A DNA stretch of 64,000 nucleotides from the IMG/VR virus record IMGVR_UViG_3300028840_006907, positions 224,001 through 288,000 of that record. The stretch is one strand, 5' to 3'. The position numbers and the translations under genes were made by a program. This document shows positions 9,001 through 37,220 of the stretch, piece by piece. A model generated the notes under the pieces. That model was not told the DNA's origin. It made no database searches and saw nothing but the letters and a program-made list of their open reading frames with translations. This DNA is from a virus. Position 1 is the stretch's first letter. Every line of letters begins with the position of its first letter.

Positions 9001-10053
9001 TTAGGAATCGGTATAACTAATCCTCAGGAAATATTACATGTAGATGGTAATATCGTAGGATCATCTGGTTCTAATTTAGGGTCTGCTGCATTAAGATTTT
9101 CTAATCTTTATTTGGCTTCTTCTATAAACTATAATTCTGATCTTAATTTTGATTCAACAGGAACACATGTCACTTTTACAACAGGTGGTAATGTAGGTAT
9201 AGGTACTACAGATCCGCAAGCATTATTACATGTCTTTGATAGTACTAACGGTGGTGATGTTGAAGTTATAATTACTAATGACTATTATAGTGTTAGTTCG
9301 TTGGATGAAACTACCAGTATAACTTTTCAAAATAGAGGTCACGATGGTAATAGGTATACTGCAAGTAGAATTCTTTGTGGAAAAGAAGGAGATTTTAGTA
9401 TCTCTGATAGAAAAGGTTATCTAGCTTTCCATACAGTTAATCAAAGTTCATTTGAAAGAATGCGAATTACTTATGATGGTAATGTCGGTATAGATACTAC
9501 GGCACCTTTAGATAAGCTTTCTGTCGAAGGTCAAATGTCTGTGACTCTTGCAGGTGATCGAAAATTTAAAGTAGATAGTACAGGACAAATTTATTCCGAT
9601 GCAGGTACATCAATATTTACTCCTGCTGACCTTGCTGAATGGTCAAAGGTAGAGGGGTATCTGGAAGAATATGAGTTAGGTATGGTAGTACAACAATCCT
9701 GTGTAGATTTAACCGTTAAGCTAGCTGATAGCCCTTCTGAGAGAGTATATGGTGTGGTTACAAACCGTGCCACATTTTTGGGAAGTCTTACTGGTATTGA
9801 TAAGAAAATATTAAAAGAATTAACGGATAGTGAGATAGAAGATGAGTTCAATGCCAAAAAAATAGCAATGGTAGGGCATGTTCAAGTTCTGGTAAAGGGT
9901 ACCGTTAATATAGGTCAGTCATTGACTCTTTCTGATAAGAAAGGAATAGCACGGGGAGCTACAACTTTTGAAGAAAAAGCTCTGGCTCTTGGTATTGCAA
10001 GAGAAAGTTATGATTCAACCGATATAGGACTTATTGAGGCGAGATTATTATAA
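3040..10053 (+). CDS. giant virion fibre protein (BNR/Asp-box propeller + collagen-like tract + GIGT..LHV fibre repeats + C-terminal capping-type module)
   Basis: GTG start 6 nt after AGGAGG; 2,337 aa. About nt 3460-4300 carries repeated Asp-box-like motifs (TTDSGNSW, TINDGTSW, TTDGTTW, TTNGGTSW, TDDAGSTW). About nt 6070-7175 is uninterrupted G-X-Y (GVQGETGIQGLQG...). Nt 7390-9520 has ten copies of [VI]GIGxTxPxxxLHV spaced by conserved GGDVGIxxNN...GSVDETASLxYRFG...MRI units. The C-terminus reads ADLAEWSKVEG...GMVV...YGVVT...VGHVQVLVKG, resembling fibre C-terminal autoprocessing or chaperone modules. Confidence 0.85.
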   Translation: MSEVYQGDYAPNLYNEEKRYYLFQAQQLTNLTDAELRDLHNISNTYVRRTVQAQIGDCAIQDGYKIAENTSDKSNNFLITGGSGTLDDPGMYYLKGYRLFLLGDIAYKDQTDTGTITDDGYTKTILPALTTPTGVTSTLNSLSLSNPTLICCGDTSAIANSSDWGRNWVDRNAMTSQNLNGSSLGDASVGYAVGNVGAVLRTTDSGNSWINIRTSLPTLPTNYQNVNFFDAYFVNSSIGWITGQSGAILKTINDGTSWTVQGSGVTTSDLSGVHGTGLTDVWAVGSSGMVVKTTDGTTWSQQASGTLFNLSRVHAINTLVAYAVGNSGTIIKTTNGGTSWSALTSDTTENLRDVHFTDLNNGWAVGDNGTITRTDDAGSTWDSSTIASVDLRAVTFYDTTGFTAGGSGEIYRTLDNTNWVKYRTDYVYIDFHLAEVSGDATSGSEYIDTSLVDATVGYPSANRLRVVSDVKVSEGWPAPADYTNTDATLQHYIAPLASIERSVGTSDITSANITDLRTVVRTIGEIDAALKDGSIGTSAIADGAITPDKLDSTGDYTMGSLSILGDSSIAGDLTIGGILVVSDYRTSTIMDNLVVRGSAQLGDSTAPYEDSVNIYGNITQVLDSTKIAYDIQTSSTTDASPIIKIVSDSTGSVWHVESKSQTTSSLFDATTQNMGYDFHLNHLGYEGGLFKLRDDASNHTITISKTAPGFRGSVLDVTSNSNDPTINIVNRALSDSTSLSIDQTHGTMITLNTLGDASGIDIYSQGSGRDLHIDHSGTLGIAVDITSSSAQVAMNLVNQMGPAVVITQNGDDEALLVLNKDSTTLGRALEINHRGSDVGLGVYNTGTGMGQLISHVGDSTHPALDIYVAGNEKGPALRINKANDETGEGIRVWNQGFSESLRLIQDRTDSSATVLLIESQSIGYDVSSSNWNIDSSGNIYTAGSITSDSTATVTSSKFAFDSTYYMTSTGMYLDNSGYDSSNPAVAGRAFIESGFLRVSDGTTASPIPSWGATGATGNTGATGSTGATGSGTQGTTGVQGSAGATGATGPAGTGSTGVQGVQGETGIQGLQGDTGVSLGATGLQGITGLRGFTGLQGQTGVAGETGVQGVQGQTGAFGGPPGETGVQGVQGNTGVQGTTGVQGSTGVQGIQGQTGIQGIQGNTGVQGIQGNTGVQGQTGVSGETGVQGTTGVQGIQGQTGIAGQTGIAGQTGVQGIQGIQGQTGAQGLTGVAGETGVQGSQGNTGVQGIQGHTGAGIQGTTGVQGLQGQTGSQGTTGIQGETGVGIQGQTGVAGVDGQTGIQGIQGTTGVQGETGTQGIQGNTGIQGTQGSTGVQGETGVGAQGTTGVQGIQGNTGVQGTTGVQGIQGQTGVQGTQGETGYIDSSSVNHNALLNLTVGDDHTQYAFLAGRTGGQTINGGDAASDVLTLQSTTDTTKGNIILNPISGDVPGKVGIGVTSPIYQLHVGEILDGGTVGICINNQYTANGSVDETASLIYRFGRPLSPQYRVAGQVLVGKEQDWWDYNSTDAYMAFHTTRDTISREQMRINAQGYVGIGTTNPQAKLHVTTFAQFDEGFSTNIGIGVTAPQAQLHVGESVTDGDVSIIVNNWSWTGGSVDETASLQFRFGPPPSNYSAGKISAHKTLDYMSFDNRDSYMTFSVVNNQSEVERMRILNDGKVGIGTTDPQERLHVIDRGQFDMGLQQPIGIGVTAPLAELHVGNSTNGGDVGIIINNQYNTTGSVDETASLIYRFGTVGSANYRVAARICAHKELDWQSFDNVDSALAFRTTRNQSENERMRITSEGDVGIGTVTPSEKLHVEGNIYTTNGFLAGGNIQIEGDFLGGTDGNSNLGSTSRRFNNLYMASSINYNSDLTFDCTGTHVTLTTGGNVGIGTTNPQGLFHVSDDTNGGDVGIVVSNRYIGGGSVDETASMIYRFGHPLGVANKVAARISAHKELDWANSNNTDAALIFWTTRDAVERQQMRIDSNGYLGIGITNPQEILHVDGNIVGSSGSNLGSAALRFSNLYLASSINYNSDLNFDSTGTHVTFTTGGNVGIGTTDPQALLHVFDSTNGGDVEVIITNDYYSVSSLDETTSITFQNRGHDGNRYTASRILCGKEGDFSISDRKGYLAFHTVNQSSFERMRITYDGNVGIDTTAPLDKLSVEGQMSVTLAGDRKFKVDSTGQIYSDAGTSIFTPADLAEWSKVEGYLEEYELGMVVQQSCVDLTVKLADSPSERVYGVVTNRATFLGSLTGIDKKILKELTDSEIEDEFNAKKIAMVGHVQVLVKGTVNIGQSLTLSDKKGIARGATTFEEKALALGIARESYDSTDIGLIEARLL
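6070..7175 (+). repeat. collagen-like (G-X-Y)n coding repeat inside the 2,337-aa fibre gene
   Basis: 9-bp-periodic GGN-NNN-NNN coding with degenerate ggagttcaaggaa-type units. It creates many shadow ORFs on both strands. Confidence 0.9.
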
Positions 10054-10275: not shown

Positions 10276-12027
10276 TTATGCCTTGTGAAATCGAAAACTA
10301 TTATTAAATAAATAACTAGGTTTTGACTCAACTGATCTTCCCATGTATGTTCTGGTTTTTGAGTAGCTTATATTTAAACATTTCTGAGCCCTTGTGCATG
10401 CTACGTAAAATAATCTCTCTTCCTCTTTTTTATCTACAGCAAAACTATGAGGCCATACTCCTTCTTCTACACCTACAACTAGGACTGTATTAAATTCAAG
10501 ACCTTTACTGGCATGAGCCGTTAATAACTTAACCCCATGTCCGGTATCTTCTTCCAGAAATGTACTTGCTAAAACCAGGTCCTCTATGGTTCTAAATTCT
10601 CTGATGATTTCTAAAAATGAAGTCAGCATTGTACGGTCACTATCTTTTTTAATAGTAGTTCTATAATCTGTTTTATATAAGATAGTCTCAACAGCCTCTG
10701 AAGGAGTCATGCCCTTTATTTCATTTAAGATATTTATAAGTCCTCTTATACGGGGCATTTCATAAGCCATAGTTTCTAGATAAGACCAGCCTTCTCGAAG
10801 TAAAATTTCTTTTTTCTTTGCTCCGAATCCACGAGGGGGTACATTTACGATTCGGTTTAAACTTTCTAAATCATCTCTATTCGTACTGGCTTTGAGAAAA
10901 CTCATTAAATCTTTGGGAACTCTACGCTTATAATAAGGAAGGGCACCAACAACTTTATATGGTATGTGTTTACTTGCAAAAGCTCTTTCAAAGAATAAGG
11001 ATCTTGCATTTACGCGAAACAGTATTGCGGTATTTTCGTAATCGTTGGCTCTTATAAGGGCATTGGATATTTTCTCTGCCTCGTCTTCCTGACTATTAAA
11101 TCCGGTGAAAGATATTGATCCTTGGAAAGGGTTTTTAGCAACCATCTGATTACCGTATTGAATGTATTGATTGGCATGTTTTATGATCTCTGGAGAACAT
11201 CTGTAGTTGAAACTTAAGTGACATACAGTCGGTTTATGTAATTCTATAAAATGTTTTATGTTCTCAGGATGGGCACCCCTAAATTGGTAAATGGACTGAT
11301 TAAAATCAGCCACTACAAACAATGTCTTTGAATTTTTTGTGTATAGTTTATTTATAATGTCATATTGAATTAAAGATGTATCTTGAAATTCGTCTACTAA
11401 TAGATGAGGCCATTTTTTTGAGTAAAAATCAGCGCAATCTTTATGTCCTAAACAGTCATTGGCATAAATGAGTAGGTCATCGAAATCACATGCATTATTT
11501 TTTAGAAGAATCTCTTGGTAAGTTTTATATACAAGTAAAAAATTTCCTTCATTCAGTTCTGATGTAAACTGCGAAAGTCTGAATGATTTCCTGACATTAT
11601 CGGACCCCATTGATTTGATATGGCTAATAGCCAAGACATATGTTTTGGGTTCTCCGGGCAATTCCCGAGATTTAATGATTGTTTTTACAATTGATAACTG
11701 ATCACCGTCATCATATATACTAAAATTAGGTTTTATTGGTAAATGCCGTGTAAAATTTCTGATTATCCCTACACATAAACTGTGAATTGTGCTGACTTGC
11801 ATTTTTCCAATAGAGTCACAATGTAACTTTAATCGCTCTTTCATTTCATTGGCTGCTTTATTCGTAAAAGTAATAGCACATATATTATCTGGAGAAATAC
11901 CTTGTTCCATAAGCCTTAAAATCTTGGCTATAAGACATCGGGTTTTTCCTGATCCTGCCGAGGCATTAACCATTGTAGGTGATGCAGCTTCAACGGCTCT
12001 GGTTTGTTCTGTATCTAATGATATCAT
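10276..12027 (-). CDS. UvrD/PcrA/Rep-type superfamily 1 DNA helicase
   Basis: 583 aa. Walker A NASAGSGKTRCL, Walker B/motif II LLVDEFQDTS, motif V-VI LLTAHASKGLEFNTVLVVG, and LFYVACTRAQKCL. Start overlaps the upstream stop (TAATG). Confidence 0.9.
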   Translation of the reverse strand: MISLDTEQTRAVEAASPTMVNASAGSGKTRCLIAKILRLMEQGISPDNICAITFTNKAANEMKERLKLHCDSIGKMQVSTIHSLCVGIIRNFTRHLPIKPNFSIYDDGDQLSIVKTIIKSRELPGEPKTYVLAISHIKSMGSDNVRKSFRLSQFTSELNEGNFLLVYKTYQEILLKNNACDFDDLLIYANDCLGHKDCADFYSKKWPHLLVDEFQDTSLIQYDIINKLYTKNSKTLFVVADFNQSIYQFRGAHPENIKHFIELHKPTVCHLSFNYRCSPEIIKHANQYIQYGNQMVAKNPFQGSISFTGFNSQEDEAEKISNALIRANDYENTAILFRVNARSLFFERAFASKHIPYKVVGALPYYKRRVPKDLMSFLKASTNRDDLESLNRIVNVPPRGFGAKKKEILLREGWSYLETMAYEMPRIRGLINILNEIKGMTPSEAVETILYKTDYRTTIKKDSDRTMLTSFLEIIREFRTIEDLVLASTFLEEDTGHGVKLLTAHASKGLEFNTVLVVGVEEGVWPHSFAVDKKEEERLFYVACTRAQKCLNISYSKTRTYMGRSVESKPSYLFNNSFRFHKA

Positions 12028-13828: not shown

Positions 13829-14470
13829 TTATCTATCAAATTCTGAAATTTTCATATCTTTTAAAGTGATTATATAATTCTTTTTAACACCACTCTCAAT
13901 GAATTTGATTAATGACTCCGATGCTACTGCCACTGCCAGAAGTATAATATTCCTGGCCAATGGGTACTCGCATACATCAGGAGCTATCGTGTCTTTTGGG
14001 ACGGTATAAGATTCGTTCCATATTATTTCCGCGTAATCCTGAGACAGCCCGACATGTAAACAGCTCAAACCATTATCCTTACAATATTGATAAACTAATT
14101 TTCGGCTAATATTATTATCAAAAGAATCGATGATAATATTTGGTTTTTTCAAATATTTACTCACAGTAGTTTTATTAAGTTCTTTACTATTGGCATTCAA
14201 AACAGTTTTGGTTGAAGCATATGCTCTCATTTTCATAGTCGCTACTTTGTAGGTACCTTTTTCATTTTGGTTCCAGATCTGGGTACCATTATTGTGAGGT
14301 TCAATTCTGTCTTTATCGATAATTGTAATTTCTTTGAATCCCTGTCGAACTAAATTATCACAAAGATTTGACCCTATTGCTCCGACACCACAGAGTGTAA
14401 TTGGGGTTGTTGATAATTTACCAACTACTTCTTCAGATCGATACATTCTTTCATGTATTAATAAATCCAT
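13829..14470 (-). CDS. E1-like (ThiF/MoeB-family) adenylation-domain protein
   Basis: 213 aa. Rossmann motif ITLCGVGAIGSNLCDNLVRQGFKEITIIDKDRIEPHNNGTQ (GxGxxG followed by D-x-D...N...Q), then IIDSFDNNISRKL (the DN of ThiF-type folds). A Cys sits in DVCEYPLARN. The usual Arg of N-x-x-R-Q is Thr here. Confidence 0.75.
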   Translation of the reverse strand: MDLLIHERMYRSEEVVGKLSTTPITLCGVGAIGSNLCDNLVRQGFKEITIIDKDRIEPHNNGTQIWNQNEKGTYKVATMKMRAYASTKTVLNANSKELNKTTVSKYLKKPNIIIDSFDNNISRKLVYQYCKDNGLSCLHVGLSQDYAEIIWNESYTVPKDTIAPDVCEYPLARNIILLAVAVASESLIKFIESGVKKNYIITLKDMKISEFDR

Positions 14471-14474
14471 AATA

Positions 14475-14999
14475 TCATCCTATCCTAGCTATAATGCGAT
14501 CTTTTAACAAGACAAAGGGAATTTCAATACAACCTACAATCCGGTCTTTGTCTCTTTTATATAAATAAAATCTTTGTACTTCTGATTTGATTCCACATAA
14601 TAACGGTTTACCCAAAGCTTTGACCCAACCAGTCATAGTTTTATCATCTAAGGATGAAGGTTCCATTATATTACTTGGATGAGTATGATTAAAACCTACT
14701 ATTTTATTTCTGTCTCTGATTACTTTTTCCCAGTCAAAATCAACTGAACCAGGACCACCAGTGGATTCATAGATTAGTCTACCATAAATCCATTTGCAGT
14801 ATTTTTTACCATATATGATCCAACAATTTTCGTTAATTGTTTGTACTACTTCAATAGCTTCTATTGTTAATTTATTTTTATTGTAAATACCTTTATATGT
14901 TCGACCACATTCTGGGCATGGCATTCTTTGTGTTTCATTTTCTGTAATCCAGCATATATATTTTCCGCACTTACATGTAAATTCACTGCTTTCGGGCAT
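14475..14999 (-). CDS. zinc-ribbon + JAB/MPN+ (JAMM) metallopeptidase
   Basis: 174 aa. N-terminal CKCGKY...CPECGR. Exact JAMM signature GFNHTHPSNIMEPSSLD (H-x-H-x7-S-x2-D). Confidence 0.8.
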   Translation of the reverse strand: MPESSEFTCKCGKYICWITENETQRMPCPECGRTYKGIYNKNKLTIEAIEVVQTINENCWIIYGKKYCKWIYGRLIYESTGGPGSVDFDWEKVIRDRNKIVGFNHTHPSNIMEPSSLDDKTMTGWVKALGKPLLCGIKSEVQRFYLYKRDKDRIVGCIEIPFVLLKDRIIARIG

Positions 15000-15025: not shown

Positions 15026-15925
15026 CTAATACAACGTTCTACTTATTTGATGAGTGCGTTGACCCTCTTTTATTACAGAAATTAATGCTTTTAAATCATA
15101 GTCTTTATCACCAACATGACCTGTTTCATGGTCGGTTAAACAGATGCCTGCAGTAATAACGTGGTGACTTTGATCTTTAGTAACAATAGTATTAAATTTC
15201 TCTCCATCGATTTCATATGTTACATAAATATGATCCGATTTTTCATCACTGCTCAGGTATTTACCTCCGGCAAATTCTATATCACGTTGAATCTTTGTTT
15301 TTTTCTTTTCTTCAAGTGCTCGTTCACGTTCTTCTTTGATTTTTAAATCGATTTTGTATTTTATGTTAAAAGCAATTTTCTCCTCCAATGTCAGACCAGA
15401 GAATTTTAATTTAGATGGGTCTCTGAATTCTTTCAGGGACTCATTAAGATAATCTGTAATCATCGGATCGGCTGACATATCCATTGAATCAAACCAGATA
15501 TTAGCTCCGTCAAATCGGCATAGACATTTAGAAAATGTTGTAACCATATCATCGAAAAGAAGAACTGGGTATAATTCTGATACTTTTAATCCCAGATGAT
15601 TACTCTTTATCGGGATCCCAAGATAAAAATCTTTCTTTTTATGTACTAAAACCATTCTTATCTTTGGTAAATATTTAAGATAAGATTGAATCTCATCTAT
15701 TTCCGCTAAATCTATTGCTTCAGCCCGTTTATTATCAAGTGCTTTGAATTTGTACCATCCCGGTTCTGTTTTCGGGATGTTTAAGTAATGAATAATTCCT
15801 TGAATACGGATAATGATTCGGTCATTATAATACACAGGAGAAATGATAGTCTTTTCAGTCATCATTTCTTCCTGTTTCCCTATTTTATCAATAAGGTTTA
15901 AAATATTATCTTTTCTTACGGTCAA
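15026..15925 (-). CDS. hypothetical protein with C-terminal E2/UBC-like active-site motif
   Basis: 299 aa. TTG start with GAGGAA 5 nt upstream, overlapping the upstream gene by 20 nt. The C-terminus YVTYEIDGEKFNTIVTKDQSHHVITAGICLTDHETG...LKALISVIKEG resembles the UBC motif HPN-x3-G-x-ICLD...SI-x-LL. The N-terminal ~220 aa has no recognised motif. Confidence 0.45.
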   Translation of the reverse strand: MTVRKDNILNLIDKIGKQEEMMTEKTIISPVYYNDRIIIRIQGIIHYLNIPKTEPGWYKFKALDNKRAEAIDLAEIDEIQSYLKYLPKIRMVLVHKKKDFYLGIPIKSNHLGLKVSELYPVLLFDDMVTTFSKCLCRFDGANIWFDSMDMSADPMITDYLNESLKEFRDPSKLKFSGLTLEEKIAFNIKYKIDLKIKEERERALEEKKKTKIQRDIEFAGGKYLSSDEKSDHIYVTYEIDGEKFNTIVTKDQSHHVITAGICLTDHETGHVGDKDYDLKALISVIKEGQRTHQISRTLY

Positions 15926-17462
15926 AAGATTTCCTCACGGGTAAAGGTGTATCCATGATCTCATATAGAAGATCGAGTTTTGATTTTCTGGATAGCAATG
16001 GAATTAATCCAGGCAATCCATAGTAATCGCTACCTTCAGGTTCATAGTAATCGAAAGGTATTCTAGCTTGTTTTAAATACATGCTGAATTCTTTACGACT
16101 CCATGAACTTGGAATGTAAATAATAGTAATAGTAGGAGTCACATTAAATTTTTTAACATAATTATCCCATATCTCAACGAAAAATGGATTATTATTTTCA
16201 CCTTCATCAGTGACCACTATTATCTGTTCTACATAATAGTTTTTTCTAATAAGGTAATCTAATGCTATACCTATGGAAGTCCCACCATTACTTTTTACAG
16301 GTCTGAAAGCCCTTTCCCAGGCAGACATATTCGGTTCATTAGCTGTGATCTCTCTGGCCATTGTATCAAAAGTAATAGCATAGAGAGGAGCTTCTGTAGC
16401 ACCTGAAATAAGAGCCGCAACATTTTTTCCGACTTCGATGGCTTGAGTCATAGAACCTGATTTATCGATAAAGACTGCAGTAGGTACTTTTATAACACCT
16501 TTCTTTTTAATTTGCTGATCTGCAATTTCATCGAGGATCTTTTGAGATTCCTCATTTTTGATCCGACCTGTTTTCTTTGCTTCTTTGGATTTTAAAGCTG
16601 ATACATTTTTAGCTTTTTTAGCTTTTTCCAATTTAGCCGTAATCAATGTTTTTGTATCCTCATTGTCCATGGCACCACGTTCTTCTAGGGAAGCATAGTT
16701 ATTAATAACTTCCTGTGGAGACATAGCATTGATTAGAGCAATCAGAATTGTAGGAGTGATTTGATCAACCAAACCTACAGCCACCGTATAAGGTACTTTA
16801 TGTTCTATAATCAGCTTTGCCACTTCAGTCGGATTATCAGCTTGTGCTATTTTTTCGAAAACATTTAATTTACTGTCCGTAGGACGTTCATTTCCGAAAA
16901 GAATCTTCTGAGCACGTTCACTAGGTGCTATACGAAGAGTAGCATATAATCCTTTAAGATCTTTTGGACTTTTTAGGGCAATAGCATCAAAAAGATCGTT
17001 GTTGGTTTCAATATATTGAAGAAATTTCTCAACATCCCTTTTAAAGGCAGTAGGAATATTTTTGTAAAGACCTACATTTTTTTCTTCAATTTTTACTTCA
17101 TCGATCATTTTTTTCTTCATTTTTATTTTTTTGCCCGTTTTATTTCTGATCTTTATTTTTTTACCTTTAATAAAACCGACCACACGTCTTTTAAGATATA
17201 CAGGTATTTCCCTGAAGAGGGCTAGCCCAACTTCACGGTTGTCAAGAAATTCATCAACAATAAGTGAACCGATGAATACTTCTTTATGATCCCGAATATC
17301 TCCATTCTTGTAGTACCAGCTTCCAAGGTGGGCATAAAACAGCGGATCTGCTTTTTGTAATTCAAGATGGGTATTTTTTAATTTATCTAGGTCCCGGTGA
17401 GGGCAACTCAGAAATGAGTTAAGCATGTTAACTCTGATATCATTTTCGTTAGCTTGGTTCAT
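15906..17462 (-). CDS. Ro60/TROVE-like protein with C-terminal vWA (MIDAS) domain
   Basis: 518 aa with AAGGAGG upstream. The C-terminal ~190 aa parallels the Ro60 vWA block by block: VFIDKSGSM (DxSxS), AITFDT, NGGTSIGIAL, QIIVVTDEGEN. The N-terminal ~330 aa is helical with ADPLFYAHLGSWYYKNGDIRDHKEVFIGSLIV, similar to the TROVE N-terminal signature. Contains a Lys-rich insert (GKKIKIRNKTGKKIKMKKK). Confidence 0.6.
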   Translation of the reverse strand: MNQANENDIRVNMLNSFLSCPHRDLDKLKNTHLELQKADPLFYAHLGSWYYKNGDIRDHKEVFIGSLIVDEFLDNREVGLALFREIPVYLKRRVVGFIKGKKIKIRNKTGKKIKMKKKMIDEVKIEEKNVGLYKNIPTAFKRDVEKFLQYIETNNDLFDAIALKSPKDLKGLYATLRIAPSERAQKILFGNERPTDSKLNVFEKIAQADNPTEVAKLIIEHKVPYTVAVGLVDQITPTILIALINAMSPQEVINNYASLEERGAMDNEDTKTLITAKLEKAKKAKNVSALKSKEAKKTGRIKNEESQKILDEIADQQIKKKGVIKVPTAVFIDKSGSMTQAIEVGKNVAALISGATEAPLYAITFDTMAREITANEPNMSAWERAFRPVKSNGGTSIGIALDYLIRKNYYVEQIIVVTDEGENNNPFFVEIWDNYVKKFNVTPTITIIYIPSSWSRKEFSMYLKQARIPFDYYEPEGSDYYGLPGLIPLLSRKSKLDLLYEIMDTPLPVRKSFDRKKR

Positions 17463-17483
17463 AATATCTCATCCTCCTTATGT

Positions 17484-17750
17484 TCAGGTTTCAATTTTTC
17501 CGAAAGTAGCATTTGGTCTAACTGTAATGTTACCATTTTTATGGTGTTCAACAACTAATTCAGCAAATTCTGATGCTGGTCTATCATAATGATCTACTAA
17601 AGCCAATTTAATTTGTTCACCAGTTATATTATCCGATGTGATCTCGGTTCCTGGTTCAATCCCGAGTTGTTCCCATCTGTCTTCTGGGAAAAGATCTTTG
17701 AGATTAATATCTTCAGTTTGACCATCATACATTATATGGACTTCACTCAT
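17484..17750 (-). CDS. small acidic protein, candidate ubiquitin-like (beta-grasp) modifier
   Basis: Start revised to the ATG at 17750, with GGAGG 5 nt upstream; the 109-aa version in the track lacks an RBS. 88 aa: MSEVHIMYDGQTEDINL...ITVRPNATFGKIET. First gene of the E2/JAB/E1 operon, with a Gly 4 residues from the C-terminus. Confidence 0.6.
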   Translation of the reverse strand: MSEVHIMYDGQTEDINLKDLFPEDRWEQLGIEPGTEITSDNITGEQIKLALVDHYDRPASEFAELVVEHHKNGNITVRPNATFGKIET

Positions 17751-17790
17751 ATGAGCCTCCTTGTAATAAGTTAAAAAAAGAGTCCCGTAT

Positions 17791-17807
17791 ATTATACGAC
17801 ACGAGAT
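17791..17807 (-). promoter_or_regulatory. conserved promoter motif, family 1 (CTYCRTGTCGTATAAT)
   Basis: The minus strand reads ATCTCGTGTCGTATAAT, about 40 nt upstream of the 17750 start. The same TGTCGTATAAT core recurs at 18956-18972 and 61807-61823 on the plus strand. Confidence 0.6.
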
Positions 17808-17888
17808 TAACATTTCATTAAGTAAAAAATTGGGTAGAATATAAATTCTTGTGTGTCATCATGGTAAATAACTTTTTTAAAAAAATTA

Positions 17889-17917
17889 TTGACACACTTA
17901 AAATTTATGGTTATATT
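17889..17917 (+). promoter_or_regulatory. sigma70-type promoter of the RNA operon
   Basis: TTGACA (17889-17894), a 17-nt spacer, then TATATT (17912-17917). The predicted start near 17924 coincides with the first base of the RNA1 closing helix. Confidence 0.7.
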
Positions 17918-17923
17918 ATTGAC

Positions 17924-18063
17924 AGTTCTGCACTCTAACTTTTGATGCTTACATAGAGAAAATAGCTCAGTTGGTCAGAGCGCGAGATTTAGGTTCTTGA
18001 AGTCTTCGGTTCAATTCCGAATTTTCTTACCATAAAATTAGCACCTTCAACTTGTGCAGAACT
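17924..18063 (+). ncRNA. structured RNA unit 1: shared closing module enclosing a complete tRNA
   Basis: Perfect 10-bp terminal helix AGTTCTGCAC (17924-33) / GTGCAGAACT (18054-63). Family module just inside it: 5' TCTAACTTTTGATGCTTACA and 3' GCACCTTCAACTT. The cargo is the tRNA at 17956-18032. Confidence 0.6.
17956..18032 (+). tRNA. tRNA, anticodon UAG (Leu by the standard table), class-I shape, CCA encoded
   Basis: Hand-folded cloverleaf. Acceptor GAGAAAA/TTTTCTT (G1-U72). D-arm GCTC-AGTTGGTCA-GAGC. Anticodon arm CGAGA-TTTAGGT-TCTTG (U33, anticodon TAG at 17990-92, G37). 5-nt variable loop AAGTC. T-arm TTCGG-TTCAATT-CCGAA, A73, then CCA. Confidence 0.85.
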
Positions 18064-18081
18064 ACTTAAACCAAGAAATAA

Positions 18082-18199
18082 AAGTCAGACATTCTAATTA
18101 TTAGGGCGTACATGGCGTTAAAACCATGCTTCCTGCAGAAATCAGGAAGCAATCTCTGGGCCAAGGCTCAGGGGCGCACTGATGACTTATGTCTGACTT
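18082..18199 (+). ncRNA. structured RNA unit 2: shared closing module enclosing three hairpins
   Basis: 11-bp terminal helix AAGTCAGACAT / ATGTCTGACTT. Module 5' TCTAATTATTAGGGCGTACA and 3' GCGCACTGATGACTT. Interior hairpins: CATGG-cgttaaaa-CCATG, CTTCCTG-cagaaat-CAGGAAG, and CTGGG-ccaagg-CTCAG. Confidence 0.55.
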
Positions 18200-18248
18200 A
18201 ATATAGATTGTAAAGTGTTGTAAAATAAATTTGATCTTTGAAAATTAT

Positions 18249-18430
18249 AGGATAATGCCTTCTAACCTGTTGGGCTTACAAATTTTACTGGTTCGACTCC
18301 AGGTTCCGCCTCTCGGTCCTTTTGTAAAGATTGTAAAGGATCAGGAGGCGGAACAAGCCGGGTGGTCTGGCGATTGAATGCAAATCAATTTATTTGAAAT
18401 TAACGCTCTTTTAACTTGGGCATTTATCCT
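18249..18430 (+). ncRNA. structured RNA unit 3: closing module + circularly permuted tRNA-like core (Y-RNA/YrlA-like)
   Basis: Terminal helix AGGATAATGCC / GGGCATTTATCCT (one bulge), followed by TTTTTT. Order inside: T-arm CTGG-TTCGACT-CCAG (18288-302); a 20-bp closed acceptor-like hairpin (18303-354); AA; D-arm GCC-GGGTGGTCT-GGC; and hairpin ATTGA-ATGCAAA-TCAAT. Confidence 0.6.
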
Positions 18431-18477
18431 TTTTTATAGTAATTTATAATTTTATATAAAGTGATCTTTGAAAATAT

Positions 18478-18660
18478 GAGGTAAGTGCCTCCTAACATAA
18501 CGGGCTTACAAATTAATAGGGTTCAACTCCCTGTTCCCCCGCCTAAGTCTTTGTCATATAATGATTAAGATTTGGGCGGGGGAACGAGCTGGGTGGTTCA
18601 GCAATCAACGTTTAATTGATGAAAAACATTTTTACGCTCTTTTAACTTAGGCACTTACTC
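18478..18660 (+). ncRNA. structured RNA unit 4: closing module + circularly permuted tRNA-like core
   Basis: Terminal helix GAGGTAAGTGCC / GGCACTTACTC, followed by TTTTT. T-arm AGGG-TTCAACT-CCCT. Closed acceptor-like hairpin GTTCCCCCGCC...GGCGGGGGAAC. D-arm GCTG-GGTGGTT-CAGC. Hairpin ATCAA-CGTTTAA-TTGAT. Confidence 0.6.
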
Positions 18661-18681
18661 TTTTTATTAAATTGAAATTAC

Positions 18682-18858
18682 AAGGAGCACCTTCTAACCT
18701 GTTGGGCTTACAAGTTATTCGGGGTTCAAATCCCTGTCCCGGCACTAGGTTGATTCCCTAAAAGTCAACCCAGTGCCGGGATAGCCAAATTGGTAAAGGC
18801 GACTATATTGAACATAGTAAACAAAACTATCTACGCTCTTTTAACTTGGGTGCTCTTT
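18682..18858 (+). ncRNA. structured RNA unit 5: closing module + near-perfect circularly permuted tRNA
   Basis: Terminal helix AAGGAGCACC / GGTGCTCTTT. T-arm CGGGG-TTCAAAT-CCCTG (18720-36). Acceptor 3' strand TCCCGGC + A73, a linker hairpin, then acceptor 5' strand GCCGGGA (18775-81). U8 A9, D-arm GCCA-AATTGGTAA-AGGC, and anticodon arm ACTAT-ATTGAAC-ATAGT (UGA at 18809-11). Confidence 0.6.
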
Positions 18859-18899
18859 ATATATTTCTCGCAAAAGGAATACAGGGTGAAACAGGAGTA

Positions 18900-18940
18900 T
18901 AGGGATTAAGAAGAAATTTTTGATCCCTATTTTATTTTTT
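18900..18940 (+). terminator. intrinsic terminator closing the RNA operon
   Basis: Stem TAGGGAT (18900-06) / ATCCCTA (18923-29), then TTTTATTTTTT. The loop is rather large (16 nt). Confidence 0.5.
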
Positions 18941-18955
18941 CCCGGATTTTCCCTA

Positions 18956-18972
18956 CCTTCATGTCGTATAAT
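18956..18972 (+). promoter_or_regulatory. conserved promoter motif, family 1
   Basis: CCTTCATGTCGTATAAT, 44 nt upstream of the 19016 start. 16 of 17 positions match the copy at 61807-61823. Confidence 0.6.
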
Positions 18973-19015
18973 TATTAGATAAAGATTTTCTAAACATTTT
19001 ATTAGGTAATTAATT

Positions 19016-21643
19016 ATGACATGTAAAATTTGTAAGAGTAATCTTTCTTATACTTTTGATAAATTTCCAGCTTATAAGTTCTGTCCTTGTTGTAACCTTT
19101 ATTTTCAAGAAGAATTTCCACCAAAGATATTTGAAGGTCCTGATGAGAATAACGGGCATGGTCCCGGTACAGGTCATTTAATGTCTGAGGATGAAAAGGA
19201 AATAAATAAAAATTTCGCTAATGTTCTCTATGATATGTTTATTCCTCGAACTCTTCTAGATATAGGTTGTAAATACCCCTATTTTATTAGTGTGTTAAAA
19301 GATAAAATAGATGTATTAGGAATTGATCCTATTTCAGAGATCTTGAAATATGGAGAAGAATTGGGTGTCTCTGTAATTCGTGATGATTTTGAAGATATGA
19401 ATATTACTCCTTTAAAAAATAAATTCGATTTAATAACTTTGATACATACTTTCGAACATTTTTATAGCCCAATAGAGACCATGAAAAAGATAATCGAATG
19501 TCTTACTCATAGAGGAGTGCTTTTAATAAGAATTCCAAACATAGATATTGAAGGTATAGAAAGAGATTTTACTGATCATCATGTTCAAATCCATCCCTTT
19601 ATATATTCAACACAAGCAATGTATCGAATCGCTCAAAAATTTGATTGTGAAATTTTTAGGGTCGATGATATTATTGGATATGGCCAGAGCGATTTTTATT
19701 TAAGGAAGAAAAGGGACCATCTTTCTTTATCGGTTTGTATGATTGTAAAAGATGAGGAAAAGAATGTTTCTGATTGTTTGGAGAGTATAAAAGATGTAGC
19801 TGATGAAATCATAGTTGTGGATACCGGATCTATAGATAATACCAAAGAAATAGTATCCAAATATACAACAAAGATATATGACTTTAAATGGATTGATGAC
19901 TTTTCTGCTGCTAGAAATCACTCTTTAAGTAAGGCAACGGGTGACTTTATTTTATGGCTTGATGCTGATGATATTGTAGAAAATCCAGAAAAGATTAATG
20001 AAATATTAAAAAATGATGATGCTAAGATATTTAATTTTAATATTAAATATGGAAATGATGTCTTTAGTCAGGCTAGACTATTTAGGAATTTTTATAATAT
20101 AAAATTTTCTGGTAGAGTTCATGAATATCCTGTAATCGATAATTTATATATAAAAGATACTGAAGTTAATGTAATTCATAAAACCGAAAAACATTCAACA
20201 GAAAACCGTTCTGATAGAAATCTCCGTCTCCTTAAAAAAGAATACGAAGATAATCCGAACAATTCCCGGACACTTTTTTACCTGGCAAGTGCTTATAAAG
20301 AACTTACTCGTTGGGATGAAGCTATAGATTTTTATCGAAAATATTTAACTATTTCTATCTGGAAAGATGAGAGATGGATGGCTCAAAAGAATATTGGATG
20401 TATTCTTTCCTGGAATAGAAAATATGAAGAAGCCATTGAAGAATTGAAGAAGGCTATTGAAATAGATGATCGATGGGCTGAGTCATATTATTATATAGCT
20501 GAGTGTTATTTCTATTTAAAAAACCCTCAAGAATGTATAAACTGGTCTTTAAAAGCTATTGAGAAAAAGATGCCCGAATCACCTCTTTGGAAAGAGATCC
20601 CAATTTATAATGACGCACCATACCGTTATCTCTTTGCTTCTTATGGTTCTTTAGGTGATTTTGAGAAAGCATTGCATTATTGTAAGATAGCATCAGAAAA
20701 AGTTCCTGAGGATGAATGGCTTAAGGAAAGAGTCACTTATTTTGAGAATGCTACAAAAGGAGTTCCTGTTGTAGTCGAATGTAATCGGTGGGGGGCTTTG
20801 GGTGATTGTTTAATGACAACTGCATCTTTACGTGCCATTAAGCATAAGATTCCGGGTTGTTTTATAAGATATGTCACCCATCCTAGTATGTTCCCGATCC
20901 TTGAAGGGAATAAGTTTATAGATGAACTTGTATCAGAATCTAAATCTGAGAACTCAGAAAAGGTTTATTTCTCATATCCTGACAGTAAATCTCCTATTAA
21001 AGATGAAGGTTATCCTAATAAGCCTTTGAATCGCCATTTAGTACGTATATTCGCAGAATGTGCTGGTTTAAAAGAATTTGATAATCTAAAGATGGAGTGT
21101 ACTCTTACAAAAGATGAGGAGAAATCAGGTCAGTCATTGAGATCTCGATTTAAGAAATATGTGACTCTTCATATCCATTCGGGTTGGTCTGAGTATAAGG
21201 ATTGGTATAATGATCGTTGGGAGACTGTTGTAGATGAGTTATTTAAAAGAGGTTACGTGGTTGTTCAGCTAGGCCATAAAGATGAGGGTCTCTTAGTTGG
21301 TACTGTGGATTATAGAGGCCATACTATAAAAGAAGCTATCTCTGCAATAAAATATGCTGATATTCATTTAGGAGTGGATTCATTTACAAACCATGCCTCG
21401 GCTACTGTGGGGACTCCTGCAGTTATTTTATTTGGGTCTACTTCTCCAACCGGTTCCGGGTATGATCAGAATATAAACCTTTATAAAGATTTGAAATGTC
21501 AGCCTTGTTATAAAGAATATGCATGGTCTAAGGATAATAAAGGAAAATGTCCTTATAATAAACTATGTATGGATCAGATCCTGGTTCAGGAAGTATTAGA
21601 CGGTTTTATGAGATTAGAAAAAAAATTATTTATTGATGGATAA
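19016..21643 (+). CDS. multidomain glycan-modifying enzyme (Zn-ribbon, SAM-methyltransferase-like, GT2, TPR, GT9/heptosyltransferase-like)
   Basis: 875 aa. CKICKS...CPCCN. Methyltransferase motif I-like LLDIGCKYPYF. GT2 motifs LSVCMIVKDEEKNV...IIVVDTGSIDNT and WLDADD. TPR-like LFYLASAYKELTRWDEAIDFYRKYL. GT9-like NRWGALGDCLMTTASLRAIKHKIPG and GVDSFTNHAS. Confidence 0.75.
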   Translation: MTCKICKSNLSYTFDKFPAYKFCPCCNLYFQEEFPPKIFEGPDENNGHGPGTGHLMSEDEKEINKNFANVLYDMFIPRTLLDIGCKYPYFISVLKDKIDVLGIDPISEILKYGEELGVSVIRDDFEDMNITPLKNKFDLITLIHTFEHFYSPIETMKKIIECLTHRGVLLIRIPNIDIEGIERDFTDHHVQIHPFIYSTQAMYRIAQKFDCEIFRVDDIIGYGQSDFYLRKKRDHLSLSVCMIVKDEEKNVSDCLESIKDVADEIIVVDTGSIDNTKEIVSKYTTKIYDFKWIDDFSAARNHSLSKATGDFILWLDADDIVENPEKINEILKNDDAKIFNFNIKYGNDVFSQARLFRNFYNIKFSGRVHEYPVIDNLYIKDTEVNVIHKTEKHSTENRSDRNLRLLKKEYEDNPNNSRTLFYLASAYKELTRWDEAIDFYRKYLTISIWKDERWMAQKNIGCILSWNRKYEEAIEELKKAIEIDDRWAESYYYIAECYFYLKNPQECINWSLKAIEKKMPESPLWKEIPIYNDAPYRYLFASYGSLGDFEKALHYCKIASEKVPEDEWLKERVTYFENATKGVPVVVECNRWGALGDCLMTTASLRAIKHKIPGCFIRYVTHPSMFPILEGNKFIDELVSESKSENSEKVYFSYPDSKSPIKDEGYPNKPLNRHLVRIFAECAGLKEFDNLKMECTLTKDEEKSGQSLRSRFKKYVTLHIHSGWSEYKDWYNDRWETVVDELFKRGYVVVQLGHKDEGLLVGTVDYRGHTIKEAISAIKYADIHLGVDSFTNHASATVGTPAVILFGSTSPTGSGYDQNINLYKDLKCQPCYKEYAWSKDNKGKCPYNKLCMDQILVQEVLDGFMRLEKKLFIDG

Positions 21644-22250: not shown

Positions 22251-25200
22251 ATGGCCAAGACAAAAAGGAAATGGATTGAGCTGGATTGGTACAATCCCAA
22301 TGCCTTACGTGCACAAGACATACCTTACGATCAAACCGAAAGTGTAAAAGATGCTATAGATAGAGCTGCCTCTGGAGTTCTCGGTCCGACGGGGACCACG
22401 GGTTCGACCGGTTCAACAGGTTCGACGGGTCCAACGGGTCCGACGGGAGCCACGGGTGCGACGGGAGCAGGAATCCAGGGTGAAACCGGAGTCGCTGGAG
22501 TTCAAGGAGCTACCGGAACCGGTGGTGGTGGAGATACTGGTGTCCAGGGTGAGACCGGTTTACCCGGAGCCACAGGAATCCAAGGTACAACCGGTATCCA
22601 GGGAACTACAGGAATCCAAGGTGAAACTGGAATCCAGGGACATACAGGTACAGTTGGAACAACGGGTGTTCAAGGAGAAACCGGTTCTCAGGGTACTACT
22701 GGAATCCAGGGAGAAACTGGAGTAAAAGGTGAAACTGGTATTCAAGGTCAAACCGGTATAGCTGGTGGAGCAGGATTTCCAGGAGCAACTGGAGTCCAGG
22801 GCGAAACCGGAGTCCAAGGAACTACTGGGGTTCAAGGGGAAACCGGGGTTCAAGGAACCACAGGAGTAGCCGGAGCAACCGGAGTCCAGGGAACTACTGG
22901 CGTCCAGGGAACTACTGGCATCCAAGGTGAAACGGGTGTCCAGGGAGATACTGGAGTTGGTGCCACTGGAATCCAAGGAACCACAGGTATCCAGGGTCAA
23001 ACCGGTGTTCAAGGTATCACCGGAGCTTATGGTGGTCCTCCTGGAGAAACTGGTGTCAAGGGAGAAACCGGAGTACAGGGGGCTACTGGAATCCAAGGTC
23101 TTCAAGGATTGCAGGGAACCAAAGGTGAGACCGGAACACAAGGTATTCAAGGCCAGACCGGAGTTCAGGGAGAAACTGGAGTTCAAGGGCAGACTGGTAC
23201 AGGTGCTCCAGGAGCCACTGGAGTTCAAGGGCAGACTGGTATCCAGGGAACCACTGGAATAGGTTTAGGTTCAACAGGAGTAGCGGGAGCAACTGGAATT
23301 CAAGGTACTACCGGAGTTCAAGGTAGGACTGGAGTCCAAGGATTTACCGGAGCTGCTGGTTTAGGTGAAACTGGTATCCAAGGAGCTACCGGAGTCCAGG
23401 GTGCCACAGGTATTCAAGGGACTACTGGTGCAGGAATCCAAGGAGCCACAGGTATTAGTGGTGACACGGGAGTTCAAGGAGCCACAGGAATTAGAGGTAC
23501 TACTGGTGCAGGAATCCAAGGAGCCACGGGGGTTCAGGGCATTCAAGGTCAAACTGGAGCCCAGGGCGAAACCGGAGTCCAGGGTGAAACCGGAATAGAA
23601 GGTTCTCAATTTGCAGGATTTAATTATAAAGCAAAAACAGACAATCAATCTGATACAGATCCTGGTATAGGAAATTTAAAGTGGAGTGCTGTAGCTCAAG
23701 TCACATCTAGTGAGCTTTATGTGGATGATGCTGACGTTAATTCTACGGATCTCAGTAATTTTTACCTCACTTTAAAAGCTGCCGACTCTTTACGTATTGT
23801 TCGTATGGAAGATCCTTCTCAGTATCAGATTTTTAATATAACAAACGTTACTGATAGAACCGGATGGTTCCGTTTATCTGTTACACCTGTTGTTTCAGGT
23901 GGTTCGACTTTTAGTTTAAATGATAATATCATACTGATATTTAGTATATCAGGTCCTAGAGGTCAGACCGGAGTAAAAGGTGAGACTGGAATTCAAGGAA
24001 CTACAGGTGTTGCCGGAGCCACAGGAGTCCAAGGTCAAACTGGAATTCAGGGTCAAACTGGAATCCAGGGCATACAGGGCCAGACTGGAATTCAAGGACA
24101 AACTGGTATTCAAGGTCAAACAGGAATCCAAGGTCAGACAGGTGTTGGCGCTCAGGGTGCTACTGGTGTAGCTGGTCAAACCGGGGTCCAGGGAGAAACT
24201 GGGATACAAGGTCAGACTGGTGCAGGAATCCAGGGAACTACTGGTGTTCAAGGCGTTCAAGGATTAACAGGTGTGCAAGGCCAGACAGGTGCCGGAATCC
24301 AAGGTGAAACCGGAGTCCAGGGTACTCAAGGTTTAACCGGTATACAGGGTCAGACAGGTGCTGGAATCCAAGGAGAGACTGGTGTTCAGGGAAACACTGG
24401 GGCTTTTGGTGGTCCTCCCGGAGAAACTGGTGTTCAGGGAGAAACTGGTGCACAAGGTTTAACTGGAGTCCAAGGTCAAACCGGAGCAGGTATTCAGGGA
24501 GCCACTGGTATTCAAGGAGTTACTGGAGTTCAAGGCCAAACCGGTGCTGGTATTCAAGGAGTCACTGGAATCCAAGGACAAACTGGTATACAGGGTCAGA
24601 CAGGAGTAGCAGGTCAGACCGGAGTCCAAGGAATACAAGGCCAGACAGGAGTAGCAGGTCAGACCGGAGTTCAAGGAATTCAAGGACAAACCGGAATAGC
24701 AGGTCAGACCGGAGTTCAGGGTATACAAGGTCAAACTGGAATTCAAGGGCAGACTGGTGCTGGAATCCAAGGTACAACTGGAGTAGCCGGAGCTACAGGA
24801 GTTCAGGGAATTCAAGGTCAAACAGGAGCTGGAATCCAAGGTACAACTGGAGTCCAGGGAACTACAGGAGTTCAAGGTGAAACTGGTACTGGTATTCAGG
24901 GAGAAACTGGTACGCAAGGTATTCAGGGTCAAACCGGAATTCAGGGACAGACTGGGATTCAAGGTAATACTGGTGTAAAAGGTGAAACCGGAGTTCAGGG
25001 TTTTCCAGGTCCTCAGGGTACGAAAGGTGATACTGGTGCTCAAGGTATTCAAGGTGAGACAGGAACTCAAGGAATTCAGGGCCAAACTGGAGTAGCTGGA
25101 GAAACTGGAGTTCAGGGTCAAACGGGTACTCAAGGAATTCAGGGTCAGACTGGTGTAGCTGGTGCAACTGGTGCGGGAATTCAAGGTCAAACTGGTGTTC

Positions 25201-34878: not shown

Positions 34879-34881
34879 TAA

Positions 34882-37173: not shown

Positions 37174-37220
37174 TTATAAAATTTACATATAAGATCTATA
37201 TAACATATAAGGAGGTTCAA

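Follow-up and report, generated by a model that had tools for sequence, protein, structure and literature searches.

A Ro60-like protein and an adjoining array of modular RNAs with tRNA-shaped cargo in a huge phage: a probable ribonucleoprotein system of the Ro60/Y RNA kind

The purpose of the tRNA-like domain of bacterial Y RNAs, and of the effectors that are recruited by it, is an open question of Ro60 biology. Here we describe a 64,000-nucleotide (64 kb) stretch of huge-phage DNA (IMG/VR record IMGVR_UViG_3300028840_006907, positions 224,001 to 288,000; hereafter the window, with positions counted from its first letter), in which a gene for a 518-amino acid protein adjoins an array of five structured RNA units. 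Related contigs and genomes that were compared with the window are designated by L numbers. We consider it probable that this locus encodes a ribonucleoprotein (RNP) system of the Ro60/Y RNA kind, composed of a highly divergent Ro60 homologue and a modular family of non-coding RNAs of its own. Each unit folds independently into a rod, in which a closing helix gives way to a conserved asymmetric loop and then to a short second helix that ends with GC-N-UACA (together termed the handle), and this rod holds a cargo, which is a tRNA with encoded CCA, a permuted but complete tRNA look-alike, or a set of simpler hairpins.

The array is a bracketed transcription unit of independently folding, covarying units. 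An earlier note on this DNA, made from the sequence alone, had placed five units here, each closed by a helix of its own and all sharing one asymmetric module, and reading of the sequence bears this out, with all five on the + strand. The 5' motif CTAAY-N4-8-GSKTACA occurs at exactly five sites in 64 kb, all of them on the + strand (17935, 18094, 18262, 18492 and 18694), where 0.22 sites are expected by chance and none of 100 shuffles attains five; the conserved 5' loop of these units reads YCUAAY. The 3' module GCNC-N4-6-RACTT is likewise found in all five. A segment of 10–12 nt before the 5' module returns as its reverse complement after the 3' module, 118–184 nt downstream, and the resulting closing helices of 10–14 bp have five different sequences in the five units. 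Unconstrained minimum free energy folding closes units 1, 2, 3 and 5 fully and leaves the first two and the last bases of unit 4 unpaired, and unit 3 has a single bulged U in its 3' closing strand. Fold z-scores of units 1 to 5 are −2.1, −7.9, −5.9, −7.2 and −6.3.

The proposed promoter and terminator of the array were also recovered. A sigma-70-type promoter, TTGACA-17-TATATT (17889–17917, + strand), matches at 11 of 12 positions, and the end of its −10 box lies 7 nt ahead of the first base of unit 1; an identical promoter stands at an equal distance from the array in the syntenic relatives L020, L021, L022 and L025. A terminator search detected an intrinsic terminator at 18899–18940 (+ strand), consisting of a hairpin (18899–18930) and a T-run, with terminators at the equivalent position in L020 and L021. 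The gap of 17814–19015, described in the earlier note as free of open reading frames (ORFs), contains none of 50 or more amino acids except for one of 55 amino acids that overlaps its 3' edge (19010–19177, minus strand).

Covariation, which the earlier note had read from the five paralogous helices, extends well past them. Six syntenic relatives (L020–L025; 65–79% protein identity) carry 3–6 units each, which likewise lie inverted in the corresponding ORF-free gap. Sixteen units of the permuted type, taken from the window and these six relatives, yield an RNAalifold consensus of 41 pairs, 33 of which show compensatory changes. Pairing in this set amounts to 92.5%, against 38–51% if the partners are slid by 1–3 columns, and 167 doubly changed cells compare with at most 50 in the slid controls; none of 500 shuffles attains any of the observed covariation measures. 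A covariance model (R1), trained exclusively on these 16 sequences, matches units 1, 3, 4 and 5 only within the window; across other loci (759 kb) it gives 132 matches at E ≤ 0.01. In the 36 best matches outside the training set, which come from other phage clades and cyanobacteria, pairing is 90.6% (35–48% slid), and 34 of 41 pairs are compensated, with none of 500 shuffles as high; since this alignment was fitted to the model, it leans to the R1 structure.

The RNAs are linked to the gene of the 518-amino acid protein by strand and by position. On the strand of this gene lie 130 of the 132 R1 matches, and the remaining two both belong to L267, a contig of the window's own clade. A scanner that combines motif and helix counts 63 units on the strand expected for the RNA, 5 on the opposite one and about 8 in shuffled sequence, and 54 of the 63 sit in arrays flanking the gene. 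For bacteria, where 80 loci were kept of 222 relatives of the protein, with flanks of 3 kb only, the same scanner gives 201 units on the strand of the gene versus 21 on the other. Every distinct phage locus inspected has an array within a few kb of the gene, and so do 73 of the 80 bacterial loci. A blastn search with the array against 50,697 phage records gave no match, and two exact-pattern scans of IMG/VR with 14-base handle patterns returned, among the matches listed, single matches only, which were judged to be chance.

The 518-amino acid protein (15906–17462, minus strand) is modelled over its full length as an alpha-helical, HEAT-type ring followed by a C-terminal von Willebrand factor A (vWA) domain with a complete MIDAS motif (metal ion-dependent adhesion site). 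The model matches the folds of Xenopus Ro60 (1yvp_A; values 20.3 and 428), Deinococcus Rsr (2nvo_A; 17.2 and 421) and the Ro60 of Thermus phage phiLo (9l5y_B; 15.4 and 400). The MIDAS residues D332, S334, S336, T394 and D418 are invariant in 33 homologues. To judge by this model, the protein is remotely homologous to Ro60, or at the least its structural analogue over the full length, and has been missed by annotation. Public entries for its cyanobacterial members read "VWA domain-containing protein" or "hypothetical protein", and a match to an HNH family of PHROG (E 1e-4) spans the vWA region only. The model further places a lysine-rich, two-stranded beta-hairpin of about 30 residues (residues 100–129; GKKIKIRNKTGKKIKMKKKMIDEVKIEEK) as an insert in the helical ring, which may be an extra RNA-binding arm. 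Such a hairpin is unexpected for a Ro60 fold, a statement made without a residue-by-residue comparison with solved Ro60 structures.

The family is large. A word-indexed search lists more than 1,086 relatives, some of them on contigs of 424–512 kb, and an exhaustive profile search at E ≤ 1e-3 yields at least 1,414 clusters at 50% identity, which would amount to a hidden branch of Ro60. A tblastn search of 50,697 phage records with the protein found one metagenomic 595-kb phage, and a scan of one bacterial genome per species found the 222 relatives mentioned above. Bacterial carriers include Nostoc, Mastigocoleus, Gemmata, Isosphaeraceae and Acidobacteria, together with the cultured strains Calothrix NIES-2100 (orthologue WP_096607649.1), Nostoc linckia NIES-25, Fischerella PCC 7414 and Tolypothrix PCC 7101; the system is therefore not phage-specific.

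Handle anatomy was derived from 79 units of 23 phage loci. From the outside inwards, it comprises the closing helix, which has 74 different sequences in the 79 units; a conserved asymmetric loop, in which 5' YYWAA stands opposite 3' RAACUY; a second helix of 4–7 bp, whose inner end reads R-G-C / G-C-Y; and an invariant U-A-C-A before the cargo. The loop is kept from phages through cyanobacteria. As to a possible co-evolution of the loop with the protein of its locus, loop identity is 0.51 within a locus versus 0.43 between loci, values that are blurred by register errors.

Unit 1 (17924–18063, + strand) carries a class-I tRNA, called by ARAGORN at 17956–18032 and by Rfam at 17956–18029 (65.9 bits), with anticodon UAG and an encoded CCA. 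It is flanked by UACA-UA on the 5' side and by UAAAAUU-AGCA on the 3' side, and R1 also matches this region (17920–18067, E 4.7e-4). The "true tRNA" of the earlier note is thus confirmed as a tRNA call, but its status as a genuine decoding tRNA is doubtful, because close orthologues with identical D-arm and T-arm have unlike anticodon loops: UAG is read in the window and UCG in L021, and the loop of L020 has 6 nt. Unit 2 (18082–18199, + strand) comprises the predicted three hairpins, the first of which is a degenerate T-arm that is still intact in the L020 orthologue (ATGGTTCGTATCCAT there). On the reverse strand of L021, at about 3380–3410 (320–350 of the reverse-complemented array), only a remnant of unit 2 is seen: the cargo is deleted and both strands of the closing helix persist (AAACGGGAA ... 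TTACCTGTTT). Units are thus gained and lost among close relatives.

Units 3 (18249–18430), 4 (18478–18661) and 5 (18679–18861), all on the + strand, share one architecture and match R1 at 133, 138 and 160 bits, respectively. Their cargo consists, from 5' to 3', of a T-arm (GGTTCRAnTCC), a closed acceptor hairpin (7-bp acceptor plus extension), a D-arm with GG, which is of class-II type in unit 5, and an anticodon-like arm with a 5-bp stem and a 7-nt loop. This is a complete cloverleaf in circular permutation, with the handle at the position of a long variable arm. When the cargo ends are joined in silico, ARAGORN calls a tRNA across the junction with anticodon GCA in unit 3 (weak), UUU in unit 4 and UGA in unit 5, so the permuted tRNA-like cores proposed for these three units are recovered. 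None of the three encodes CCA past the acceptor stem.

Cargo classification with ARAGORN was extended to 280 units (phage loci, 79; bacterial loci, 201). Linear tRNAs (84 units) and permuted tRNA-like structures (79) are followed by hairpins of 35 nt or less (40) and others (77). Linear cargos score 30–69 bits as tRNA, and most of them have an encoded N73-CCA followed by an A-rich linker. Anticodons are highly diverse, A34 types included, and no class predominates. A set made up mainly of suppressor tRNAs was rejected as an explanation, as stop-reading anticodons (UCA, UUA, CUA) are a small minority. Anticodon diversity and the changes between orthologues argue against ordinary decoding; they would fit RNAs that serve as bait, decoy or sensor, or an anticodon loop under diversifying selection. 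In genomes of huge phages and cyanobacteria, many "odd" tRNA calls are probably cargo of this kind and not decoding tRNAs.

Arrays hold up to 7 units. In four cyanobacterial loci (L310 5237–5453, L284 5502–5718, L285 4693–4913, L327 4560–4779) an extra handle unit with a long cargo of about 156 nt stands between the Ro60-like gene and a neighbouring gene for a conserved 299-amino acid protein, in addition to the upstream arrays.

Besides the promoter ahead of unit 1, the array probably carries internal promoters or leaders, as GATCTTTGAAAAT precedes unit 3 (18233–18245, + strand) and, in a second copy, unit 4 (18463–18475). In the form GATCTTTGAAA(A/T), the motif lies 8–13 nt ahead of the closing helix of many units and also precedes units in L006, L020, L022, L023 and L025. 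CTTTGA is present within 40 nt upstream of 22 of the 79 phage-locus units, compared with about 0.02 expected per unit. As the GATCTTTGAAA(A/T) motif of L006 stands directly downstream of a TATATT box of its own, the motif probably marks the point where transcripts of single units begin, or else a site of processing. Two loci have direct repeats of 38–40 nt directly 5' of handle units (L008 3663–3702 and 3845–3884; L010 4353–4390 and 4496–4533). They consist of a short hairpin and GGATTGAAA(C), resemble CRISPR repeats with their AUUGAAAC tag, and may be a borrowed processing site of the Cas6 type. In L004 (3094–3279), a related huge-phage contig, a match to the HEARO RNA of Rfam (90.2 bits, above the gathering score) stands directly upstream of the handle-RNA array.

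Cargo of this quality bears on a rival explanation, which we regard as unlikely: the handle could be a cassette for tRNA expression, caging or maturation, and the units precursors of working tRNAs. Both termini of the tRNA, the 5' end and the CCA, would stay hidden in a leader-trailer duplex before RNase P and a 3' nuclease set the tRNA free, permuted units would be cleaved and then joined by an RtcB-type ligase, as in the permuted tRNA genes of Cyanidioschyzon, and the Ro60-like protein would act merely as a chaperone or quality-control factor. The N73-CCA ends and tRNA scores of the linear cargos speak for this view, as do the 7-bp acceptors, regular anticodon arms and ARAGORN calls of the permuted ones, an RtcB gene near one related cassette (L021, see below), and the YrlA RNA of Mycobacterium smegmatis, which is cut by RNase P and gains CCA (PMC4201824). 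However, the orthologues of unit 1 keep their D- and T-arms while the anticodon changes, many cargos are not tRNAs (the 40 short hairpins and the 77 others), a permuted unit would retain a variable arm of about 30 bp once matured, and units 3–5 lack an encoded CCA after the acceptor. No bulge-helix-bulge motif was recognised, though no systematic search for one was made. Conservation of the loop from phages to cyanobacteria would better suit a dedicated protein partner.

The array resides in a cassette. Its order, that is, RNA array, a protein of about 85 amino acids, Ro60-like protein, 299-amino acid protein, JAB peptidase and ThiF-type E1, is kept (tblastn) in 18 huge-phage loci of IMG/VR and in the 595-kb phage LR756511; altogether, about 25 huge-phage loci and more than 70 bacterial genomes carry the cassette. 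Of the 80 bacterial loci, tblastn detects the small protein in 38, the 299-amino acid protein in 30 and the E1 in 28, at low identities and within the 3-kb flanks.

The small protein has 88 amino acids in the window (17484–17750, minus strand; about 85 in relatives), a conserved start MSEVHIMYDG with an AAGGAGG ribosome-binding site ahead of it, and an invariant C-terminal F/W-G followed by a tail of 0–4 residues. A C-terminal Gly with a short tail is the hallmark of an E1 substrate that is trimmed by a JAB peptidase, and the protein is a candidate ubiquitin-like (Ubl) protein. Comparisons with ubiquitin and MoaD (hhalign) were not significant, nor were Pfam searches with 15 members. ThiF-type E1-like adenylyltransferase is encoded at 13829–14470 (minus strand; Pfam ThiF E 1.9e-23) and also matches the E1-E2 models of PADLOC and ThiF of NCBIfam. 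The JAB/MPN-type peptidase (14475–14999, minus strand) is a weak call, with Prok-JAB at E 1.6e-4 and 21.9 bits for a Pfam cut-off of 25, and weak JAB marks are seen in L023 and L025 too.

The 299-amino acid protein (15026–15925, minus strand) is encoded by a gene that begins 20 nt before the Ro60-like gene ends, and has an invariant Cys in the motif AGICLxG. Its model contains beta-barrels like those of OB, S1 and IF1 proteins, and a viral fold library returns weak S1/OB matches; sequence searches of Pfam, NCBIfam, PADLOC, PHROGs and the Protein Data Bank (PDB) gave nothing useful. A PADLOC match to Cas6 (E 0.0045) is contradicted by the all-beta, OB-like model. An E2-like enzyme was not found in the cassette: the 299-amino acid protein has OB-like barrels and not the UBC fold, and there is no further conserved candidate. 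RtcB is encoded about 3 kb downstream of the cassette in the 75%-identical relative L021 (8396–9560; PF01139), which recalls the rsr-yrlBA-rtcBA operon of Salmonella; it was not found among the scanned ORFs of the window.

A second rival explanation, quite unlikely in our judgement, concerns this 299-amino acid protein. It, or less plausibly another protein of the cassette, would bind the handle, and the Ro60-like protein would deal with RNAs of another kind, e.g., misfolded or damaged ones of host or phage, without docking to the handle. In phage loci the 299-amino acid protein is linked to the array as tightly as the Ro60-like protein, although it was detected in only 30 of the 80 bacterial loci; its modelled barrels are typical of RNA binders, and the handles have no canonical Ro-binding motif. 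On the other hand, both proteins could bind the handle, and in every characterised Ro60 system the adjacent RNAs with a terminal stem are ligands of Ro60 (PMC4201824, PMC12135203).

A third one, that the units are DNA-level repeats (MITE-like with terminal inverted repeats, or recombination sites), would fit the inverted repeats of 10–14 bp around each unit and the gain and loss among close relatives, but is effectively refuted by the 74 distinct helices in 79 units, where MITE copies share termini, by frequent G-U pairs and a strand-specific pattern, by the bracketing promoter and terminator, and by covariation that includes the internal tRNA-type helices.

Returning to the Ro60/Y RNA kind of system, we hypothesize that the conserved handle would be the docking site of the Ro60-like protein, because in every studied Ro60 system adjacent RNAs with a terminal stem serve as ligands, as cited above. 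The tRNA-shaped cargo would form the effector end, in analogy to the bacterial YrlA and Yrn1 RNPs, and might present a tRNA surface to nucleases, an RtcB-type ligase, the CCA-adding enzyme or modification enzymes; alternatively, the Ro60-like protein might gate access to the cargo. The small Gly-terminated protein, the ThiF-type E1, the JAB peptidase and the 299-amino acid OB-fold/Cys protein may couple the RNP to ubiquitin-like activation, in the form of protein conjugation or of sulfur transfer to RNA, and this module could modify either the RNP or its targets. The most likely role would be in phage-host conflict over the integrity or availability of tRNA, given the presence of the cassette in huge phages and bacteria, the fast turnover of anticodons and the anti-Ppl phenotype of gp130 of phage Bas63 (PMC11482910).

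Several observations weigh against this proposal. The array lies on the strand opposite to the Ro60-like gene in the window and its six relatives L020–L025, whereas outside the clade of the window it is always upstream and on the strand of the gene in the loci inspected. The 518-amino acid protein finds nothing in Pfam, NCBIfam or PADLOC, and phmmer finds nothing among PDB sequences; the best PDB match of the family profile, to phiLo Ro60, is not significant (E 0.11). Some distant family members give sub-threshold matches to vWA_Ro60 (E 4e-4), never to TROVE. The Ro60-like assignment of the earlier note is thus carried by the modelled ring-plus-vWA fold and the complete MIDAS, with no significant sequence match to TROVE behind it. 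As to the RNAs, the suggested Y RNA design is seen in the terminal helix, the internal loop, the tRNA-like domain and the position of the array beside the protein gene, but none of the five handles contains CGAA or, more fully, the canonical Ro-contact motif (GGUCCGA or GNCGAAN0-1G). A possible match to the Y RNA and YrlA families did not materialise: at E ≤ 10, Rfam finds tRNA alone in the window besides chance miRNA-like hairpins, with no further family near its threshold, and at the gathering score it finds no family besides tRNA for these RNAs in 12 related loci. We infer both the binding of the handle by the Ro60-like protein and the role in conflict; the 299-amino acid OB/S1-like protein could be the handle binder instead, and the small protein is a ubiquitin-like candidate solely by size, invariant C-terminal Gly and gene neighbourhood.

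A wider reading, which we offer tentatively, is that of a widespread, hitherto unrecognised system for conflict or RNA control in multicellular cyanobacteria, planctomycetes and huge phages, in which a Ro60-like ring holds a library of caged tRNAs and permuted mimics by their shared handle, and the Ubl/E1/JAB module acts on this RNP. The module, together with the OB-fold/Cys protein, might modify the RNA (e.g., by sulfur transfer) or mark the proteins that take the tRNA bait. Such a system could sense, decoy or repair an attack on tRNA, or free special tRNAs on demand. If this is true, a prokaryotic Ro60 that is functionally coupled to a ubiquitin-like pathway would recall the pairing of Ro60 and Ro52 in animal cells.

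Bacterial Y RNAs adjoin rsr and mimic tRNA in permuted order (PMC4201824; bioRxiv 10.1101/312249), and the Ro-contact motif is GGUCCGA in animals and GNCGAAN0-1G in bacteria (PMC4201824). The present locus resembles the Rsr systems of Salmonella Typhimurium, Mycobacterium smegmatis and Deinococcus radiodurans, with their RNAs YrlA, YrlB and Yrn1, in its ring-plus-vWA protein (by model) and in the presence of two or more ncRNAs within a few kb, each with a terminal stem of its 5' and 3' ends and a conserved loop. Like YrlA, one class of the RNAs mimics a tRNA in circular permutation, in the order T-arm, closed acceptor, D-arm; the acceptor stem has 7 bp, as in YrlA of M. smegmatis; the RNAs are polycistronic with a tRNA, as in Deinococcus; and RtcB is nearby in some loci. 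In contrast to Rsr, the present protein is undetectable as TROVE by sequence, and the handle reads YYWAA / GCNUACA / RAACUY and not GNCGAA. The handle of YrlA replaces the anticodon stem, whereas here it is attached at the variable arm and the anticodon arm is complete. Whole tRNAs with CCA inside a handle, up to 7 units per array, and strict linkage to a small Gly-terminated protein, E1, JAB and the 299-amino acid protein further set the locus apart.

These comparisons qualify the novelty that the earlier note had claimed for the array. A multi-Y-RNA array as such is not novel, because several Y RNAs are co-transcribed with a tRNA in D. radiodurans (PMC4201824); the system as a whole was not found described. 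The same holds, in the literature searched, for the protein family, the handle and a variable-arm attachment with a full anticodon arm, and for whole tRNAs inside a handle, arrays of up to seven units and the ubiquitin-like linkage, which would have no precedent for Ro60 in prokaryotes. With tRNAs, permuted mimics and plain hairpins on one handle, the units form a natural swap series in which docking could be told from effector function.

TROVE proteins with a tRNA-like partner have been noted in a few jumbo phages (PMC7824862). The Ro60 of Thermus phage phiLo binds two upstream Y-like RNAs, Yrl1 and Yrl2 (PDB 9KOP, 9L5Y; PMC12135203). These are simple stem-bulge-stem RNAs with CGAA and without tRNA cargo, unlike the units described here; no ubiquitin-like genes are reported for phiLo, and sequence similarity to the present family falls short of significance, as given above. 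Closer in some respects is gp130 of Escherichia phage Bas63, which is Ro60-like by structure, counters the Ppl defence and stands ahead of a tRNA cluster; an anti-defence role for gp130, and a Y RNA identity for some tRNAs of the cluster, were proposed by its authors (PMC11482910). Like the present protein, gp130 is a phage protein that is Ro60-like by fold only and directly precedes a tRNA array. Unlike a member of the family, it aligns with its vWA part alone (hhalign E 0.003). No YYWAA/UACA/AACUY handles were seen around the first few tRNAs of Bas63, the only stretch read, and neither JAB nor ThiF was seen among the annotations around gp130, where most neighbours are listed only as hypothetical proteins. 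Among these first tRNAs (L266, MZ501086, 37061–37320) there are repeats, ACAGAAGACCnnTTnCAGCAA, with a downstream complement ending in GGTCTGGT, which may represent the Y-like RNAs of this other Ro60-like lineage.

The permuted tRNA genes known from Cyanidioschyzon merolae and some archaea likewise place the 3' half (T-arm, 3' strand of the acceptor) first, close the acceptor by an intervening loop and have paired termini. They are turned into working tRNAs by way of a bulge-helix-bulge, splicing endonuclease and ligase. The present units differ from them by their opening in the variable arm, by the long conserved handle and by anticodons that vary between orthologues. As for the protein module, co-encoding of a ThiF-type enzyme, a putative JAB peptidase and a small protein with a C-terminal Gly and a presumably removable tail is shared with TtuB/TtuC tRNA thiolation, SAMP/UbaA, Cap2/Cap3 of CBASS, and Bil, and some Ubl-E1-JAB systems act on tRNA by sulfur transfer. 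In contrast to these modules, no E2 or PP-loop thiolase was recognised here, the partners are a Ro60-like and an OB-fold/Cys protein, and the Ubl is a candidate.

Further genes surround the cassette in the window. Across the array, at 19016–21643, an 875-amino acid fusion protein (methyltransferase, GT2, TPR, GT9) is encoded, and this gene is syntenic in all close relatives L020–L025. At 3040–10053, 22251–31487 and 31499–38959 there are two giant ORFs (2,337 and 3,078 amino acids) and four consecutive Laminin_G_3 paralogues, which fit a structural or adhesin region of a huge phage. The last gene of the minus-strand gene string (10276–12027) encodes a UvrD-type helicase, which among PADLOC models matches RTasHel of DRT (E 1.9e-88) and GajB (E 8.5e-84).

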